A stretch of DNA of 48,891 nucleotides from Akkermansiaceae bacterium (GTDB lineage: Bacteria; Verrucomicrobiota; Verrucomicrobiia; Verrucomicrobiales; Akkermansiaceae): the NCBI GenBank assembly GCA_044373535.1, contig JBILQA010000001.1, forward strand, positions 1 through 48,891. Direction: 5' to 3'. The notes under the pieces were generated by a model. That model did no database searches and was not told where the DNA came from. It worked only from the letters and a program-made list of their open reading frames with translations. Position numbers and translations under genes: made by a program. Shown one piece after another: positions 10,925 to 18,044 of this stretch. Position 1 is the first letter of the stretch. Every line of letters begins with the position of its first letter.

Positions 10925-11416
10925 ATGGAAGCCCGTAGTGTTAGAACCGTGACCCAGGCGCTCAACGAGGCGGGGGTGCGGTATTATTTTGTGGGCGGCT
11001 TTGCGGTCAACGCGCACGGGTACGTGCGGATGACGCGGGATCTCGACTTGGTCATCGCGTTGGAGCGTGGGAACTTGCTGCGCGGGATTGAAGCGTTGGC
11101 GGCCCACGGCTACCAGATGGCGATTCCGGCGACGGCGGAGGAGTTTGCCGACGCGGAGACGCGCGAGCGCTGGCGCAAGGAAAAGGGCATGTTGGTGTTG
11201 AAGCTCTGGAGTGATGCCCATCAGCGCACGCCGATTGACGTGCTCACCTACGAGCCCTTCGATTTTGATCTCGAGGGCCCGCGCGGGATGCTCATGGAGG
11301 TGGCCCCTGGGGTGGCCGCGCCGATTGTCTCGCTCGAGACGCTCATCGCGATGAAGAGGCACGCCGGGCGCCCGCACGACTTGATTGACATTGAGGAACT
11401 TACCCGCATCGCATGA
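10925..11416 (+). CDS. Pol-beta-superfamily minimal nucleotidyltransferase-like protein
   Basis: VGGFAVNAHGYVRMTRDLDLVI fits the hG[GS]-x9-13-DxD NTase signature. The C-terminus SLETLIAMKRHAGRPHDLIDIEEL is typical of small stand-alone NTases. Confidence 0.6.
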   Translation: MEARSVRTVTQALNEAGVRYYFVGGFAVNAHGYVRMTRDLDLVIALERGNLLRGIEALAAHGYQMAIPATAEEFADAETRERWRKEKGMLVLKLWSDAHQRTPIDVLTYEPFDFDLEGPRGMLMEVAPGVAAPIVSLETLIAMKRHAGRPHDLIDIEELTRIA

Positions 11417-11616
11417 AGCCGTTTCCGACCTATGCCCCGGACTGGCGATGGGGGACGGCCGAGGGGAGCCGTGAGTTTGACCGCCAAGTCGACCGCGCCA
11501 TGACGCTGGCGGACAAGATCCAATGGCTTGAAGAGGCCGAAACGCTTGTGCTTATGATGCACCTGCAGCGGCGCCCGGCGGGGGCGCCAGACGCGTCAAA
11601 CGCGAAGACTTTCTGA
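11413..11616 (+). CDS. small hypothetical protein (67 aa) coupled to the nucleotidyltransferase
   Basis: Its ATG overlaps the NTase stop (ATGA at 11413-11416). No recognisable motif. It ends 8 nt before gmd. Confidence 0.4.
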
Positions 11617-12808: not shown

Positions 12809-13567
12809 GTGCAAAACGTACCCGTCATTGGCCTGCCTGTGGCTGTGGGGGACTACGCCGCGGCGGTGGCGTGGTGCCTGAGCAAAGCGCGGGCGGGCGA
12901 CCGGGCGTACGCGGTGGCCGCGGCCAACACGCACGTGGCAGCCTTGGCGCGCAGTGACGCGGCCTTCGCGGCGAGCATGGCGCAGTTTGACTTGATCTGT
13001 GCGGACGGCATGCCGCTGGTGTGGGCGATCAACGCGACGCTGCCGGCGCCGCGGCGCATGCGCGACCGGGTGTACGGGCCGACCTTGATGCTGCGCGTGC
13101 TGGAGGCGGCAAGCGCGGAGAGCGGAGGCCGGCACTTTCTGCTAGGCGGGACGCCTGCGATGTTGGGGAAGCTGCGCGCCAAGTTAGGCGAGAGGTTTCC
13201 CGCGACGTGCATCGTGGGAGCCTATGCGCCGCCGTTTGGCGAGTGGCCGGCGGACGAGTTTGAGCGCATCCGCGGGCAACTCGAGAGCAGCGGAGCGAAC
13301 TTCGTCTGGGTGGGTCTTGGCTGTCCAAAGCAGGAGCACTGGATTGCGCGGCACAAGGCCCAGCTGCCCGCGGCCGTTTACTTCGGGATTGGCGCGGCCT
13401 TTGCCTTTCATGCCGGCGAACTCGCGCAGGCGCCAGCGGTCATGCAGCGCCTCGGGCTTGAGTGGGCCTTCCGGCTTGCGCGCGAGCCGCGGCGGCTGCT
13501 GCGCCGGTACCTGACGTTCAACTCGTTGTTTCTCTACCACGTAGTCCGCGAGCGGATGCGCGATTGA
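12809..13567 (+). CDS. WecB/TagA/CpsF-family glycosyltransferase (GT26)
   Basis: GTG start. ADGMPLVWA, GLGCPKQEHWIARH, GIGAAFAFHAG, and LEWAFRLAREPRRLLRRYL. Confidence 0.85.
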   Translation: MQNVPVIGLPVAVGDYAAAVAWCLSKARAGDRAYAVAAANTHVAALARSDAAFAASMAQFDLICADGMPLVWAINATLPAPRRMRDRVYGPTLMLRVLEAASAESGGRHFLLGGTPAMLGKLRAKLGERFPATCIVGAYAPPFGEWPADEFERIRGQLESSGANFVWVGLGCPKQEHWIARHKAQLPAAVYFGIGAAFAFHAGELAQAPAVMQRLGLEWAFRLAREPRRLLRRYLTFNSLFLYHVVRERMRD

Positions 13568-13661
13568 GATTTCCGCGCGCCTCGGCGAGAGTTGGCCGCG
13601 GCGGCCGGCTAAGCCGCCCGATAGTCCCTGAAGCCCCCTCCGCCCGCCGAAAAAAACCTCC

Positions 13662-14258
13662 ATGCCAGCCCACATCCACCCCGAGTTCCACCGGTTTCTG
13701 AACCGCTTCGACAAGGAGCGCCTGCTCAAGCAGCGCGGCGCCGTGGTCTGGCTCTGCGGCCTGTCGGGCTCTGGAAAGTCAACCATTGCCAACGAGGCCG
13801 AGCGCGTCCTCCACCAGCAGGGGCGCATGACGACCATCCTGGATGGCGACAACCTGCGCACCGGCCTGAACGCCAACCTCGGGTTTTCCGACATCGAGCG
13901 CCTCGAGAACGTCCGCCGCGCCGCGGAGGTCGCCAAGCTTTTCGTCGACCAGGGAGTCATCACCTTTGTCTCGCTCATCACCCCGCACGGCGTCCTGCGC
14001 GACCTCGCACGCGGCATCCTCGGATCCGACCTGCTGGAAGTCTACGTCAAGGCAAGCTTCCAGACCTGTGCCGTGCGCGACGTCAAAGGCCTCTACGCCA
14101 AGGCACGCGCCGGGGAAATCGCCGACTTCACCGGCAAGGACAGCCCCTTTGAGGAACCCCTGCACGCCGACCTCGTCCTCAACACGGAAACCCTCAGCCT
14201 CTCGGACTGCGTCATCGAGCTCGTCGAGGCCCTCCAGCAACGCATCGAGCCGGCTTGA
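13662..14258 (+). CDS. cysC: adenylylsulfate (APS) kinase
   Basis: P-loop WLCGLSGSGKSTIA, DGDNLRTGLNANLGFS, and VRDVKGLYAKARAGEIADFTG. Confidence 0.93.
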   Translation: MPAHIHPEFHRFLNRFDKERLLKQRGAVVWLCGLSGSGKSTIANEAERVLHQQGRMTTILDGDNLRTGLNANLGFSDIERLENVRRAAEVAKLFVDQGVITFVSLITPHGVLRDLARGILGSDLLEVYVKASFQTCAVRDVKGLYAKARAGEIADFTGKDSPFEEPLHADLVLNTETLSLSDCVIELVEALQQRIEPA

Positions 14259-14465
14259 GCATAAACTAGAATCCCTTGCCCGGGCGAAAACATTAGTAAC
14301 CTGCCCAACAAGGTAATTATTACTTGCGGGGCGCGCCATTTCCGTTAGGTTGCGCCGCGCCGGGCAGCGGCGAGGGTGGCTGCGCAGGGCGCCACCACGG
14401 CGCGCGCACGGCGAGCAGCAAGAACCTAATCGCCTTCGAGATTTTCATTCCGAGCACTTTTCCCC

Positions 14466-15371
14466 ATGGCCGACTACCAGCTTTCCCACCTTGACCAGTT
14501 AGAGGCCGAGGCGATTTTCATTTTGCGTGAGACCGCGGCGCAGTTTCAGAACGCGGCGTTGTTGTTTTCCGGCGGGAAGGACTCGATCGTGATGGCGCAT
14601 TTGGCGCGCAAGGCGTTCTGGCCGGCGAAATTGCCGTTTCCGCTGCTGCACGTCGACACGGGCCACAACTTTCCCGAGACAATCGAGTACCGCGACCGCT
14701 ACGCGGAGGACCTCGGAGCGCGCCTGGTGATCGGCTCGGTCCAACAGTCCATCGACGACGGGCGGGTGGCCGAGGAAAAGGGACTGGATGCGTCGCGCAA
14801 CCGGCTGCAGACCGTAACGTTGTTAGACACCATCGAGCAGCACCAGTTTGACGCGTGCCTGGGTGGCGGCAGGCGCGACGAGGAGAAGGCGCGGGCGAAG
14901 GAGCGGTTTTTCTCCCACCGGGATGATTTTGGCCAGTGGGACCCGAAGAACCAGCGGCCCGAGCTGTGGAACCTGTTCAACGGGCGGCGCCACCAGGGCG
15001 AGCACTTTCGGATTTTCCCGCTGTCTAACTTCACCGAGATGGACGTGTGGATGTACATGCAGCGCGAGGAGATCGTGCTGCCGAGCCTGTACTACGCGCA
15101 TGAGCGCGAGGTGGTGGTGCGCAACGGGGTGATTTTGGCGGTGAGTGAGTTTGTCGAGCCGCGGGCCGGCGAGGTGGTCGAAACCCGCTGGATCCGTTTC
15201 CGCACGATGGGCGACGCGACCATCACCGGGGCGATCGAAAGCCGCGCTGACACCATGGAGAGCATCATCGAGGAGGTGGCCGCCGCGCGCCAGACCGAAC
15301 GCGGTAACCGCACCGACGACAAGCGCTCGGAGACGTCGATGGAAGATCGGAAAAAGGAGGGATATTTTTAG
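14466..15371 (+). CDS. cysD: sulfate adenylyltransferase subunit 2
   Basis: PP-loop FSGGKDS, HVDTGHNFPE, and the C-terminus EDRKKEGYF typical of CysD. Confidence 0.95.
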   Translation: MADYQLSHLDQLEAEAIFILRETAAQFQNAALLFSGGKDSIVMAHLARKAFWPAKLPFPLLHVDTGHNFPETIEYRDRYAEDLGARLVIGSVQQSIDDGRVAEEKGLDASRNRLQTVTLLDTIEQHQFDACLGGGRRDEEKARAKERFFSHRDDFGQWDPKNQRPELWNLFNGRRHQGEHFRIFPLSNFTEMDVWMYMQREEIVLPSLYYAHEREVVVRNGVILAVSEFVEPRAGEVVETRWIRFRTMGDATITGAIESRADTMESIIEEVAAARQTERGNRTDDKRSETSMEDRKKEGYF

Positions 15372-15372
15372 G

Positions 15373-15392
15373 GAGTCGAAGGTCTGAAAGTC
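15373..15392. repeat. left arm of the 20-nt inverted repeat flanking the four-helix-bundle ORF
   Basis: GAGTCGAAGGTCTGAAAGTC starts 1 nt after the cysD stop. GTCGAAGGTC recurs at 15399-15408. Confidence 0.85.
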
Positions 15393-15412
15393 AAAAAAGT
15401 CGAAGGTCGTGA

Positions 15413-15787
15413 ATGCGGGACATTATGAAGGCGGAAAGATTTGAAGATTTGAGGATTTGGCAGAGTGCAAGACTCCAGGCAGCGCGGCTCTATGGCGTGT
15501 TTGGAGTGGGCACCCCTGCGGCGAAAGATTTCGGATTTCGGGACCAGATTCAGCGCTGCGCCGTTTCGGTGATGAACAACATCGCTGAAGGATTTGAACG
15601 CCAATCCGATCCGGACTTTGCACGCTTTCTCAACATCGCCAAGGGGTCCAACGGCGAGGTGCGCAGCATGCTGTTTCTAGCAGAGGACCTTTCCTCTATT
15701 GATGCTCCGACAGCTACGGGAATGCGCCATCGAAGCGAGGACCTCAGCCGTGGAATCCAGACTCTCTCCAGCTATCTCCGGCACTAG
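15413..15787 (+). CDS. four-helix-bundle protein (23S rRNA intervening-sequence protein / S23p / Avd-like family)
   Basis: FEDLRIWQSARLQAARLY, FRDQIQRCAVSVMNNIAEGFERQSDPDFARFLNIAKGSNGEVRSMLFLA is the hallmark pattern of this family. 124 aa (or start at MKAERF, 15425). Confidence 0.85.
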   Translation: MRDIMKAERFEDLRIWQSARLQAARLYGVFGVGTPAAKDFGFRDQIQRCAVSVMNNIAEGFERQSDPDFARFLNIAKGSNGEVRSMLFLAEDLSSIDAPTATGMRHRSEDLSRGIQTLSSYLRH

Positions 15788-15819
15788 CCGCTCCCCACTT
15801 TCAGACCTTAAGACCTTAA

Positions 15820-15839
15820 GACTTTCAGACTTTCGACTC
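15820..15839. repeat. right arm of the 20-nt inverted repeat
   Basis: GACTTTCAGACTTTCGACTC is the reverse complement of the left arm at 19/20 positions. The single difference gives a G-U pair in RNA. ACTTTCAGAC also occurs at 15797-15806, and there is a tandem ACCTTAAG x2 between the two copies. The arm ends 9 nt before the cysN ATG. Confidence 0.85.
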
Positions 15840-15848
15840 ATCCCTCTC

Positions 15849-17093
15849 ATGGATCTTCTTCGCTTTACCACTGCCGGCTCGGTTGACGACGGCAAATCGA
15901 CGCTTATCGGCCGCTTGTTGTACGACTCGAAATCGATTTTCGAGGACCAGTTAGAGGCGATCGAGGAGAGCTCGCGCAAGCGCGGGGACGAGCATGTGAA
16001 CCTCGCCCTGCTGACGGATGGGTTGAAGGCAGAGCGCGAGCAGGGGATCACCATTGACGTGGCGTACCGATATTTTGCGACGCCGAAGCGGAAGTTCATC
16101 ATCGCGGACACGCCGGGGCACATCCAGTACACGCGCAACATGGTCACGGGTGCCTCGACGGCGAACCTGGCGATCATCCTGATTGACGCGCGCAAGGGGG
16201 TGATTGAGCAGACAAAGCGCCACTCGTTCATCGCGAACCTCCTGCGTATCCAGCACGTGATCCTCGCGGTGAACAAGATGGACTTGGTCGATTACGACGA
16301 GGCGATCTACAATGGGATTTTGCGCGACTACGAGGCGTTCGCCTCGCGCCTGGACAACATTGTGGACATCACCGCGATCCCGATCTCCGCGCTCAACGGG
16401 GACAACGTGGTGGACCGTTCGCAGAACATGCCGTGGTATCAGGGCCCGTCGCTGCTCTACCACTTGGAGAACGTGTACATCGGGGGCGAGGAAAACCACG
16501 TCGAGGCGCGCTTCCCGGTGCAGTGGGTGATCCGTCCGCAGAGCGATGAGTGGCACGACTTCCGCGGCTACGCGGGGCGTGTGGCCGGTGGGGTTTTCAA
16601 GCCGGGCGATGAAGTGACGGTGCTGCCGTCAGGCTTCACGACGCGCATCAAGGAGATCCACGCGGACAGCAAGACGCTGGCAGAAGCGTTTGCCCCGCAG
16701 TCGGTGTGCATGACCCTGGAGAACGAAATCGACATCTCGCGCGGCGACATGTTGGTCAAGGCGAACAACCCGCCGCGGGTTGGCCAGGACGTTGAGGCAA
16801 TGATTTGTTGGTTCTCGCAGAAACCGATGCCGGCGAAGGCGAAGCTGCTAGTCCGGCACACCACGCGCGACACCAAGGCGATCATCCAAGACCTCAAGTA
16901 CCGTGTGGACATCAACACGCTGCACAAGGTGGAGGCGGTGGAGACGTTGGAGATGAATGAGATTGGCCGCATCACGCTGCGCACCGCGGCGCCGCTGATT
17001 CATGATTCATACCGCCGCAACCGGAGCACCGGCTCGTTCATCCTGGTGGATCCAGGGACGAACGAAACGGTGGCCGCGGGGATGATTATTTGA
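15849..17093 (+). CDS. cysN: sulfate adenylyltransferase subunit 1 (GTPase), not fused to APS kinase
   Basis: Start MDLLRFTTAGSVDDGKSTLIGRLL, then DTPGH and NKMD. About 414 aa. The upstream in-frame extension of the ORF merely reads through the repeat region. Confidence 0.93.
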   Translation: MDLLRFTTAGSVDDGKSTLIGRLLYDSKSIFEDQLEAIEESSRKRGDEHVNLALLTDGLKAEREQGITIDVAYRYFATPKRKFIIADTPGHIQYTRNMVTGASTANLAIILIDARKGVIEQTKRHSFIANLLRIQHVILAVNKMDLVDYDEAIYNGILRDYEAFASRLDNIVDITAIPISALNGDNVVDRSQNMPWYQGPSLLYHLENVYIGGEENHVEARFPVQWVIRPQSDEWHDFRGYAGRVAGGVFKPGDEVTVLPSGFTTRIKEIHADSKTLAEAFAPQSVCMTLENEIDISRGDMLVKANNPPRVGQDVEAMICWFSQKPMPAKAKLLVRHTTRDTKAIIQDLKYRVDINTLHKVEAVETLEMNEIGRITLRTAAPLIHDSYRRNRSTGSFILVDPGTNETVAAGMII

Positions 17094-17168
17094 GGACCGC
17101 GGCGCTAGGCGCGGCTGCTGCGGGAAGCTAAGTGCTACCCTTTCCGCCGTTGATCCATTCACGCCGTT

Positions 17169-17199
17169 GAGCCAGTCAATCTGGCTCGGCCCTATTTTT
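17169..17199 (+). terminator. candidate intrinsic terminator after cysN
   Basis: Hairpin GAGCCAG-TCAAT-CTGGCTC, extendable by G-U pairs, followed by GGCCCTA then TTTTT. The T-run is not immediately adjacent to the stem. Confidence 0.45.
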
Positions 17200-17234
17200 C
17201 GCTGGCCTCAGATCAACCGTAGCTTCAGACCGCA

Positions 17235-18044
17235 ATGAAATCCCTGAGCGAGCACTTAAAGCTCTATCTGAGAACCGTCCTTGCCTGTGCGGGCGCATTT
17301 CCCACCAAGCTCACGGCCCAAGAACGAGTGGCGGAGCTAATTTCCAGGCTTTCCCCAGTGATTGCCCCCAAGGAGTTGATCCGGCTTGGCCCCAATGGTG
17401 ATGGGGGTTATTTGCTGCCGGATGATCTCGATGGGGTTCACGCGTGTTTTTCGCCGGGAGTCAGCTTGATATCGGGGTTTGAGAGAGATTGCGCAGAGCG
17501 CGGGATGAAGGTTTTTCTGGCGGATGGATCTGTTGAGGGCCCGGCAGAAAAGCATGATCTTTTTAAGTTCACGAAAAAGTTCATCGGGGTCACCGCCAAC
17601 GCTGAGTTTGTGACTTTAGACCAGTGGGTTGCTGACTCTGTGGCGGATTCCAGCGCTGACCTGTTGTTGCAGATGGATATCGAGGGCTATGAGTATGAGG
17701 TGCTATTGTCGGCCTCCCAGAGCCTAATGAATAGGTGTAGGATCATTGTGGCGGAATTCCACTCGCTCGAGTTACTGTGGAGCGAGCCGTTCTTCAACTT
17801 AGCTGGTCGGGTGTTTGACAAGATTTTGCAAAGCCACTCGTGTGTGCACCTGCATCCGAACAACCACCACGGATCAGTCAAACGGGGAGGGATCGAAATC
17901 CCACGGATCATGGAGTTCACCTTTCTGCGCAACGACCGCATGGGGCCGAGGCGGCAGCAAGCAATCTTTCCCCATCCCCTTGACTGCGATAACACAGACA
18001 ACGCTACGGTTGTGCTGCCAAAATGCTGGTACTCCGCGGTTTAA
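17235..18044 (+). CDS. FkbM-type (Methyltransf_21/22-like) methyltransferase
   Basis: LGPNGDGGYLLPDDL...CFSPGVSLISGFERDCAERGMKVFLADGSV and LLQMDIEGYEYEVLL match the FkbM-like pattern. The gene is visibly more A/T-rich than its neighbours. Confidence 0.6.
   Translation: MKSLSEHLKLYLRTVLACAGAFPTKLTAQERVAELISRLSPVIAPKELIRLGPNGDGGYLLPDDLDGVHACFSPGVSLISGFERDCAERGMKVFLADGSVEGPAEKHDLFKFTKKFIGVTANAEFVTLDQWVADSVADSSADLLLQMDIEGYEYEVLLSASQSLMNRCRIIVAEFHSLELLWSEPFFNLAGRVFDKILQSHSCVHLHPNNHHGSVKRGGIEIPRIMEFTFLRNDRMGPRRQQAIFPHPLDCDNTDNATVVLPKCWYSAV

Follow-up and report, generated by a model that had tools for sequence, protein, structure and literature searches.

The nature and origin of the rRNA intervening sequences (IVSs) that carry an open reading frame (ORF) have been in question since the early 1990s. 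In the Leptospira, Coxiella burnetii, Brucella and Xanthomonas type of IVS, helix 25 or 45 of the 23S rRNA is interrupted by a gene of the PF05635/S23p family. The Coxiella IVS is 428-444 nt long, is closed by a 28-bp stem and is excised by RNase III; 2-3 tandem GACAGAT heptamers, variable among strains, stand just upstream of the S23p ORF, with the 5' cut falling at the first repeat, and the ORF, which is in decay and, once the RNA has been processed, has no ribosome-binding site that could be used, has been proposed to be unexpressed (PMC4990558). Here we describe a cassette of this architecture lodged in an operon of protein-coding genes, between cysD and cysN, in a stretch of 48,891 nucleotides from an Akkermansiaceae bacterium (assembly GCA_044373535.1, contig JBILQA010000001.1, positions 1 to 48,891, forward strand; hereafter the window). 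A sequence-only reading of the window had pointed to a four-helix-bundle ORF enclosed by a 20-bp stem at this junction and had likened it to the rRNA IVSs. We give a probability of about 0.65 to the whole package, by which we mean a foldback gene cassette of the rRNA-IVS type at an operon junction together with the RNA-level and DNA-level proposals made below; the identity and class of the element, taken by themselves, appear highly probable. The operon is laid out as follows.

13662..14258, + strand: cysC (adenosine 5'-phosphosulfate, APS, kinase), PF01583 match 8.3e-56; first gene of the operon cysC-cysD-cassette-cysN
14466..15371, + strand: cysD (sulfate adenylyltransferase small subunit), NF003587 match 9.7e-137; also PF01507
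15373..15408, + strand: left (5') arm, a purine-rich array of 7-9-nt units, with inverted- and direct-repeat matches
15413..15787, + strand: PF05635/TIGR02436 four-helix-bundle ORF, 124 codons and a stop, from ATG 15413
15797..15839, + strand: right (3') arm, a pyrimidine-rich tandem array (Tandem Repeats Finder, TRF: period 8, 5.4 copies)
15840..15848, + strand: remnant spacer ATCCCTCTC, 9 nt from the stem base to the cysN ATG, read from the sequence
15849..17093, + strand: cysN (sulfate adenylyltransferase GTPase subunit), TIGR02034 match 1.9e-172
17166..17190, + strand: terminator-like hairpin and T-run, 3' of cysN

The cassette unit (15373-15839) measures 467 bp. Its core arms, GAGTCGAAGGTCTGAAAGTC (15373-15392) and GACTTTCAGACTTTCGACTC (15820-15839), are 20 nt long and 95% complementary as DNA; as sense RNA they pair at all 20 positions, with the 19 Watson-Crick pairs and one G-U pair that had been read from the letters matched base by base, and the duplex energy is -33.1 kcal/mol. 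The placement that had been given also holds to the nucleotide, as the left arm begins 1 nt after the cysD stop TAG (15369-15371) and the cysN ATG follows 9 nt after the end of the right arm. Even when 3 mismatches are tolerated, the 20-mer occurs only at these two sites in the 48.9-kb window, and 0 of 100 shuffles matched; the window likewise holds no second arm copy and no second PF05635 ORF. In their full extent the arms are 36 nt long (15373-15408 and 15804-15839) and are tandem arrays of 7-8-nt units that form an imperfect inverted pair. The units of the left array run GTCGAAG, GTCTGAAA, GTCAAAAAA, GTCGAAG, and the right array consists of ACTTTCAG/ACCTTAAG units in 5.4 copies, the reverse complement of the left units. 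The short sub-repeats remarked upon earlier lie within these arrays: GTCGAAGGTC occurs twice on the left (at 15375 and 15399), and ACTTTCAGAC twice on the right (at 15797 and 15821) with two copies of ACCTTAAG in between. Folding of the region, which had been proposed as a check, gave -189.2 kcal/mol for 15360-15860 (z = -4.06), with the closing stem present in both the minimum free energy and the centroid structure and an ensemble probability of 1.0 for 18 of the 20 core stem pairs.

The junction itself is normally short. We compared about 150 related places, and the loci and contigs among them are given L-numbers; they include about 78 cysD-cysN junctions from species-representative genomes, in most of which the gap is below 100 nt, which bears out the earlier statement that the two genes are normally adjacent. 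Empty sites are seen in verrucomicrobial relatives, where the two genes are separated by TAA-AATT-ATG in L019, by 27 nt in L037 and by 58 nt in L017. The borders of these empty sites are conserved (CysD C-terminus ...KKEGYF*, CysN N-terminus MDLLRFTT...), and the CysD terminus is kept in relatives with and without the insertion. As the junction measures only 4-58 nt in these relatives, the cassette is an insertion, placed exactly in the junction as had been proposed. The 9-nt spacer left before cysN (15840-15848) is comparable with the native 4-27-nt spacers of L019 and L037, and no Shine-Dalgarno sequence is found in it. No target-site duplication was seen, in agreement with the earlier reading: TTTTTAGG, outside the left arm, and ATCCCTC, outside the right arm, are not direct repeats.

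Orthologues of the cassette, 65-85% identical, occupy the same junction in Luteolibacter ambystomatis (L003), in Akkermansiaceae metagenome-assembled genomes (MAGs; L014, L028) and in metagenome contigs (L001, L004-L011), and the order cysC-cysD-cassette-cysN is repeated in L001-L011. The best matches of CysD are an Akkermansiaceae MAG and Haloferula sargassicola (84-85%), and the best named matches of the cassette protein come from Akkermansiaceae, Luteolibacter and Haloferula. To judge from these comparisons, the insertion at cysD-cysN is an old one, inherited across Akkermansiaceae, and not a recent event. Divergence of the cassette protein correlates weakly with that of CysD (Spearman 0.38, p = 0.09); vertical descent combined with relocation would fit this figure, which does not settle the matter.

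Relocation is seen in H. sargassicola (L013), where the PF05635 gene at the cys junction is another one, with arms of GCTTCGG/GTTTCGG. Its member of the window clade stands 4 kb upstream of that copy, with an fcl-like epimerase gene on one side and gmd on the other; it shares 81-82% identity with the orthologues in L003 and L014, its arms are of the GTCTGAAAGTC/GACCTTCGAC type and its flanks are GTCAAAGGTCTGAAAGTCTAAAAG and GACCTTCGACCTTCGACCTTCCGAC. The same octamer family was found upstream of a T2SSE ATPase gene in L092 and L093 (proteins 67% and 63% identical to that of the window), at a DegT/oxidoreductase gene junction in L095, and in L101 downstream of sucC, where the next gene was read by eye as sucD. 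By similarity, these copies outside the cys operon nest among the cys-site copies. The sequence-only reading was to fall if the arms were confined to this one place and the insertion were common to all relatives; what we found is the same arm family at other four-helix-bundle loci and many relatives without the insertion, so these grounds for refutation fall away. Its alternative of a small non-autonomous mobile cassette is carried by the same two findings as far as mobility goes; the term non-autonomous is unproven, since purifying selection acts on the ORF, whose product may be of use to the element.

The arms are specific to lineages. Among the PF05635 lineages found at cys junctions, each has its own self-complementary arm unit (CGGAGTT in L047, GGGAGAT in L069, CCGGTAAC in L066, TTTAGG in L075, GCTTCGG in L013). 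Orthologous arms in L001, L003, L004 and L014 are built of the same units in differing numbers, and the number of repeats differs even among contigs with an identical protein (L004, L005, L007, L009). Tandem-repeat arrays, and not a particular 20-mer, are thus the defining general feature, a point that goes beyond the earlier reading. Taken together, these loci show that the ORF and its arms have, as far as such comparisons can tell, moved as a unit between operon junctions over evolutionary time.

Some individual arrays deserve mention in their own right. In L014 (4030-4145) and L004 (3900-4000) a full local hairpin, made of a left-type and then a right-type array, lies between cysD and the ORF, and a second right-type array lies 3' of the ORF, so the left array can pair locally or around the ORF; such alternative pairing could act as an RNA or DNA switch. 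In L009 (4399-4500) a run of Ns stands in the right array beside at least 9 repeat units, a sign that assemblers struggle here and that copy numbers in draft assemblies are uncertain. Within the window, the 5' end of the ORF (15436-15459) contains three tandem 8-nt units, AAGATTTG AAGATTTG AGGATTTG, which code for the conserved ERFEDLRIW motif; they may be a coincidence or part of the repeat system.

The pattern extends through the family. We sampled 80 diverse PF05635 loci in metagenomes, whose proteins share 42-67% identity with that of the window. Within 130 nt, TRF called arrays with a period of 7-9 upstream in 41/68 loci (60%), downstream in 48/65 (74%) and on both sides in 28/56, as compared to 5.3% of control windows, and the median array had 4.4 copies. 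In 59/66 loci the two arms pair better with each other than do, on average, arms combined across loci (p = 2.5e-10). The genes are co-oriented with their neighbours (49/54 upstream, 48/51 downstream) and fit tightly between them: the upstream stop lies a median of 3 nt before the stem's first paired base, and the downstream start a median of 8 nt after its last. Further sites, with flanks named by Pfam, are leuA|leuC, tdh|kbl, exbB|exbD, the position after pntA, and the junction of an ABC-2 permease gene and its ATPase gene; named plasmid-borne examples come from Nostoc punctiforme, Trichormus variabilis, Nostoc ATCC 53789 and Riemerella anatipestifer. No rRNA flanked the PF05635 gene in the 20 of the 80 loci searched for it, which were picked for having no clear co-oriented neighbour. 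These figures suggest that the repeat-armed cassette is the usual packaging of the PF05635 gene family, and apparently an undescribed one: we found no description of it for non-rRNA PF05635 genes in full-text literature, a search that took in only a minority of subscription journals, so that an earlier description is possible. In L127 (860-1640), L135 (1100-1700) and L143 (2900-3530), right-type arrays stand on both sides of the ORF or arrays stand in a row, L127 having in addition a 116-aa ORF downstream, which suggests tandem or nested cassettes.

The protein encoded by the cassette belongs clearly to the family that had been named. The ORF, whose length of 124 codons had been given, matches PF05635 at 1.3e-28 (99.7 bits for a cutoff of 33.8) and TIGR02436 at 1.3e-25 (89.7 bits for a cutoff of 24). 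GAAGG at 15402-15406 is a possible Shine-Dalgarno sequence for ATG 15413; gene callers and homologues place the start at ATG 15425, which gives 120 aa. An AlphaFold2 model of the monomer has four helices and a mean confidence (pLDDT) of 91.2. Its best Foldseek matches are Xcc0516 (2GSC) and BT_0352 (2RLD), with TM scores of 0.82-0.88, and phmmer matches the protein to 2GSC at 4.2e-11; the closest structures list five chains each (A-E). Next comes Avd, the accessory protein of diversity-generating retroelements (DGRs; 4DWL and 8UB7 chain C, TM 0.73-0.83, identity 9-13%). The family motif GxxRxxxSxxxNxxE (Lin 2006; Zhang 2013, PMC3936711) is recognised in QIQRCAVSVMNNIAEG by R44, S48, N52 and E55, with Q41 instead of G at the first position; Q41, R44, S48 and E55 are invariant in alignment A1, and 27 positions are invariant across 37 homologues. 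With dN/dS at 0.07-0.21 among orthologues and dS saturated, the protein is, by this measure, evidently under purifying selection. In the L001 orthologue the N-terminus is altered and the ancestral stop codon is gone. Three cassette proteins had no match at E <= 0.01 among the PADLOC defence models. The family is large, with 12,420 representatives at 50% identity in a single-sequence search, and was still termed functionally uncharacterised in a 2024 paper.

A promoter and terminator scan found no promoter-like or terminator-like site within 15373-15839. The only + strand terminator-like site in 13400-17400 is the hairpin 3' of cysN, which makes the cassette internal to the transcription unit. 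What lies at the junction is thus a promoter-less sense ORF for an Xcc0516/BT_0352/Avd-like four-helix-bundle protein, bracketed by inverted arrays, with ends that abut the cysD stop and the cysN start.

How does this compare with the described systems? The protein family is that of the ORF-bearing 23S IVSs, and as in those the ORF is in sense orientation within the host transcript. The size class is similar (467 bp here, 428-444 nt in Coxiella), as is the stem (20-36 bp here, 28 bp there), and variable tandem heptamer or octamer repeats in the 5' stem region upstream of the ORF are shared with Coxiella (PMC4990558), so the likeness to IVS architecture that had been proposed is borne out. The two differ in location, which is helix 25 or 45 of the 23S rRNA in the one and a polycistronic mRNA spacer in the other; a search of 15200-16000 at E <= 1 gave no Rfam match, barring one chance match, and no rRNA. 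They differ also in the state of the ORF, decaying in Coxiella and under purifying selection here, and in processing, as RNase III excision is demonstrated for the 23S IVSs and is proposed here by analogy. Because all the IVS features looked at, save the 23S rRNA location, are found in the cassette, we place it with these elements by kind, lodged in another host RNA, and do not call it an rRNA IVS.

Correia elements are 100-155 bp long, without an ORF, and have fixed 26-bp terminal repeats, a TA target duplication and hundreds of near-identical copies. Like the cassette they are short, inverted-repeat-bounded and intergenic within transcription units, where they form mRNA hairpins, and these hairpins are described as bound by RNase III and either cleaved or protected (PMC2649163). 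The cassette differs from Correia elements (CREE/NEMIS) and from miniature transposable elements with inverted repeats (MITEs) in having a conserved gene, lineage-specific tandem-repeat arms and no target duplication that we could see. A MITE-like or Correia-like identity was considered and ruled out by the conserved ORF, the absence of a flanking direct repeat and the absence of a second copy in the window.

With Avd the cassette protein shares its fold. Avd is a pentamer that binds nucleic acid and the reverse transcriptase. PF05635 has been reported to resemble it (PMC10053308), and the L013 cys-site paralogue matches the bAvd model PF22296 below its cutoff. The window protein matches PF05635 and not the bAvd model. 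The Pfam families within +/-6 kb of the cassette are those of epimerases, glycosyltransferases, cys and rml genes; among the genes called there, the list has no reverse-transcriptase Pfam (no search for template and variable repeats was made) and no integrase family (no attC-model search was made). Integron cassettes have a single 3' attC, whereas here mirrored repeats stand on both sides of the ORF and the cassette is alone between housekeeping genes. Within this scope there is no sign of an integron cassette or a DGR component.

Two other systems resemble the arms. Foldback (FB) elements of Drosophila have long terminal inverted repeats made of variable-number tandem sub-repeats, with many pairing registers, and sometimes enclose coding DNA; the likeness is one of architecture only, FB elements being eukaryotic, on the kilobase scale and without related proteins. 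The short tandemly repeated repetitive (STRR) sequences of cyanobacteria, reportedly described by Mazel et al. in 1990, are said to be tandem heptanucleotide arrays in transcribed intergenic regions of heterocystous cyanobacteria, and reportedly have no associated gene or inverted partner. Similar heptamer arrays flank PF05635 genes on plasmids of Nostoc, Trichormus and Calothrix, as exemplified by N. punctiforme pNPUN01, where the flanks are TCAGGAG x n and CTCCTGA.

Small cargo of other, unrelated kinds also gathers at the cysD|cysN junction, which is a hotspot for it. It contains PIN_3 plus ribbon-helix-helix (RHH) toxin-antitoxin pairs, an NTP_transf_5-like nucleotidyltransferase with an Rv0078B-like antitoxin, a 430-450-aa protein and an aldose 1-epimerase, at L054:892-1640, L079:8901-9646, L041:8901-10043, L025:8907-9772, L015/L016/L018 and L088:8904-9787. 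No flanking inverted arrays were found around this unrelated cargo, so the arms are not a property of the cysD-cysN site. In other species, otherwise empty cysD-cysN junctions carry ORF-less hairpins with tandem 7-9-nt repeat arms (L020:4144-4254; L021, L022 and L026, e.g. L022:8906-9074; L024:2264-2524; L056:8906-9022; L072:8906-9135), whose units include ATCAGTG, CACAGAGAA, GGTTCTT/AATCAAC and TAATGAT. These may be MITE-like derivatives or remnants of cassettes.

We propose that the cassette would be transcribed within a cysC-cysD-cassette-cysN mRNA, in which the arms would zip into an RNA stem 20 bp or more in length. The cargo would then be looped out, and only about 10 nt would separate the stop codon of cysD from the start codon of cysN. 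On reaching UAG 15369-15371, a terminating ribosome would open some twelve pairs at the base of the stem; this melting of the basal stem would free positions -21 to -10 upstream of cysN, and translational coupling could thereby survive the insertion. RNase III probably cuts the stem at some rate, which would separate the cysD, cassette and cysN RNAs; by analogy with the systems above, we hold such cutting in vivo to have an even or slightly better than even chance. The complementarity of the arms would be renewed at the DNA level, by replication slippage in the arrays and by template switching or gene conversion between the arms, and would not be held by base-pair-by-base-pair selection on the RNA. 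E. coli genetics provides a precedent for this mechanism, with template switching taking place between quasi-palindromic arms.

Several observations weigh against this reading. No recombinase, transposase or target-site duplication is associated with the cassette, so that we infer mobility from the phylogenetic distribution only. The comparison with IVS repeats uses the text of one paper (PMC4990558) and not an rRNA-embedded copy. Stems are weak in some members, those of the L013 fcl site (-18.7 kcal/mol) and of L075 (-19.1 kcal/mol) being no better than shuffles. The mismatches in the arms number 93 of the G.U type, 104 of the A.C type (p = 0.48) and 134 transversions, without an excess of sense-RNA wobble pairs, and sense and antisense duplexes are equally stable over 66 loci; these two results give no positive sequence evidence for selection on the RNA stem, and it is for want of such a signature that we think the complementarity is maintained in the DNA. 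One might go further and take the arms as purely a DNA-level matter, the footprint of insertion or copying maintained by template switching, with an inert stem in a single four-gene message and no role for RNase III. The missing wobble excess, the common transversions and the equal stability of the two strands would all be expected, as would the fast shifts of arm copy number between contigs with an identical protein, and the purine-rich 5' arm (mean purine fraction 0.62, below 0.4 in only 1/66 loci), present on both strands, is a strand-symmetric property. We nevertheless consider this unlikely. More than 90% of the cassettes point in the direction of host transcription, which therefore matters for the ORF, if for nothing else; a perfect RNA stem of at least 20 bp with a probability near 1 could hardly escape RNase III, an enzyme that cleaves stems of this kind in rRNA IVSs (PMC4990558) and in Correia elements (PMC2649163); and the wobble test is a weak one, since fast arm turnover would leave mismatches too young to carry a signature of selection. 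A hairpin of the antisense strand or of single-stranded DNA was a separate candidate, which we rejected: the antisense duplex was more stable in 12/13 of the first cys-site cassettes, and the bias was lost in the 66 diverse loci (27/66, p = 0.10).

Could the four-helix gene instead be a resident of the operon for sulfation and 3'-phosphoadenosine-5'-phosphosulfate (PAPS) synthesis, for instance a regulator or assembly factor of CysD-CysN, and the stem a device for translational coupling and no mark of a mobile element? Its retention at cysD-cysN across Akkermansiaceae under purifying selection would fit, and so would the geometry of the stem; moreover, PF05635 genes of at least 3 subfamilies stand at cysD-cysN in 7/80 species-level cysD loci (L013, L014, L028, L047, L066, L069, L075), while the same approximately 1.1 Mb hold just 2 other PF05635 copies. 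Yet most cysD-cysN junctions lack the cassette, close relatives included; the nearest relatives of the protein stand at unrelated junctions (fcl|gmd, sucC|sucD, leuA|leuC, tdh|kbl, exbB|exbD, pntA, ABC transporter genes); and the same junction receives unrelated selfish cargo such as the PIN toxin-antitoxin pairs and the nucleotidyltransferase. The GC content at third codon positions (GC3) also sets the gene apart, at 0.61-0.62 in the cassette ORF and 0.85 in cysD and cysN. It is below that of the flanking cysD/cysN in 12/12 cassettes, by 0.06-0.37, old insertions included (window, L001, L003, L004, L014, L028, two in L013, L047, L069, L066, L075), which suggests continuing horizontal flux or weak codon adaptation. 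A resident gene is therefore improbable to us. We give still less credit to a decaying relic, in which the ORF would be unexpressed and the hairpin would persist as neutral junk or as a stabiliser of the cysD mRNA. The state of the Coxiella S23p ORF, eroding and left without a usable ribosome-binding site after processing (PMC4990558), gives a precedent, and the ORF-less repeat-armed hairpins at the same junction (L020, L021/L022/L026, L024, L056) and the altered L001 orthologue can be read in this sense; the low dN/dS with saturated dS, the invariant positions among the homologues and an intact ORF with a confident four-helix model make it very improbable. An IVS-type foldback cassette in an mRNA is thus the reading that we retain.

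The operon is set in a polysaccharide-synthesis cluster (epimerase, WecG, rml genes) with other features of possible interest. Within this glycan cluster, at about 10925-11616, a 163-aa ORF with an AbiEii domain is followed by a 67-aa ORF, an arrangement of toxin type, and in L004-L011 a PIN gene with a small partner stands directly upstream of cysC (about 1537-2132). Past the cys operon, a Methyltransf_21 (FkbM-type) gene (17235-18044) has a GC content of 0.51-0.57 in surroundings of about 0.62 and may be another acquired piece of the cluster.

One might speculate more widely that bacteria harbour a very large and so far unrecognised class of mobile elements, autonomous and of the foldback type, and that the PF05635 cassettes make up this class. 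An Avd-like pentamer would recognise its own arms, with about one subunit per 7-9-nt unit (the median being 4.4 units), and so bring about the copying, insertion or upkeep of the cassette in spacers that are transcribed; the arms would make insertions tolerable through loop-out of the cargo, preserved coupling or excision by RNase III; and the classical rRNA IVSs would be the subset that landed in rRNA. We put this forward as a doubtful proposal. If it were true, it would provide an origin for the heptamers of the cyanobacterial STRR sequences.

Eighteen 23S_rRNA_IVP genes within cas loci have been read as a functional association with Cas4 and Cas6 (PMC3936711). PF05635 genes inside cas loci or near DGRs may instead be promiscuous operon-junction insertions, which is a simpler explanation than functional association. 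The flanking arrays provide a simple and specific signature for annotation, being found at 60-74% of the family's genes and in 5% of control windows. The cassettes also put long double-stranded RNA stems, which are potential RNase III sites, between subunit genes such as those of cysDN, sucCD, pntA and exbBD, and such hidden stems bear on the stoichiometry of operons and on the interpretation of transcriptomes. Finally, should the rRNA IVS prove to be just one of the places where a much larger family of cassettes has landed, its nature and origin would become testable in the operons of culturable Luteolibacter, Haloferula, Nostoc and Riemerella.

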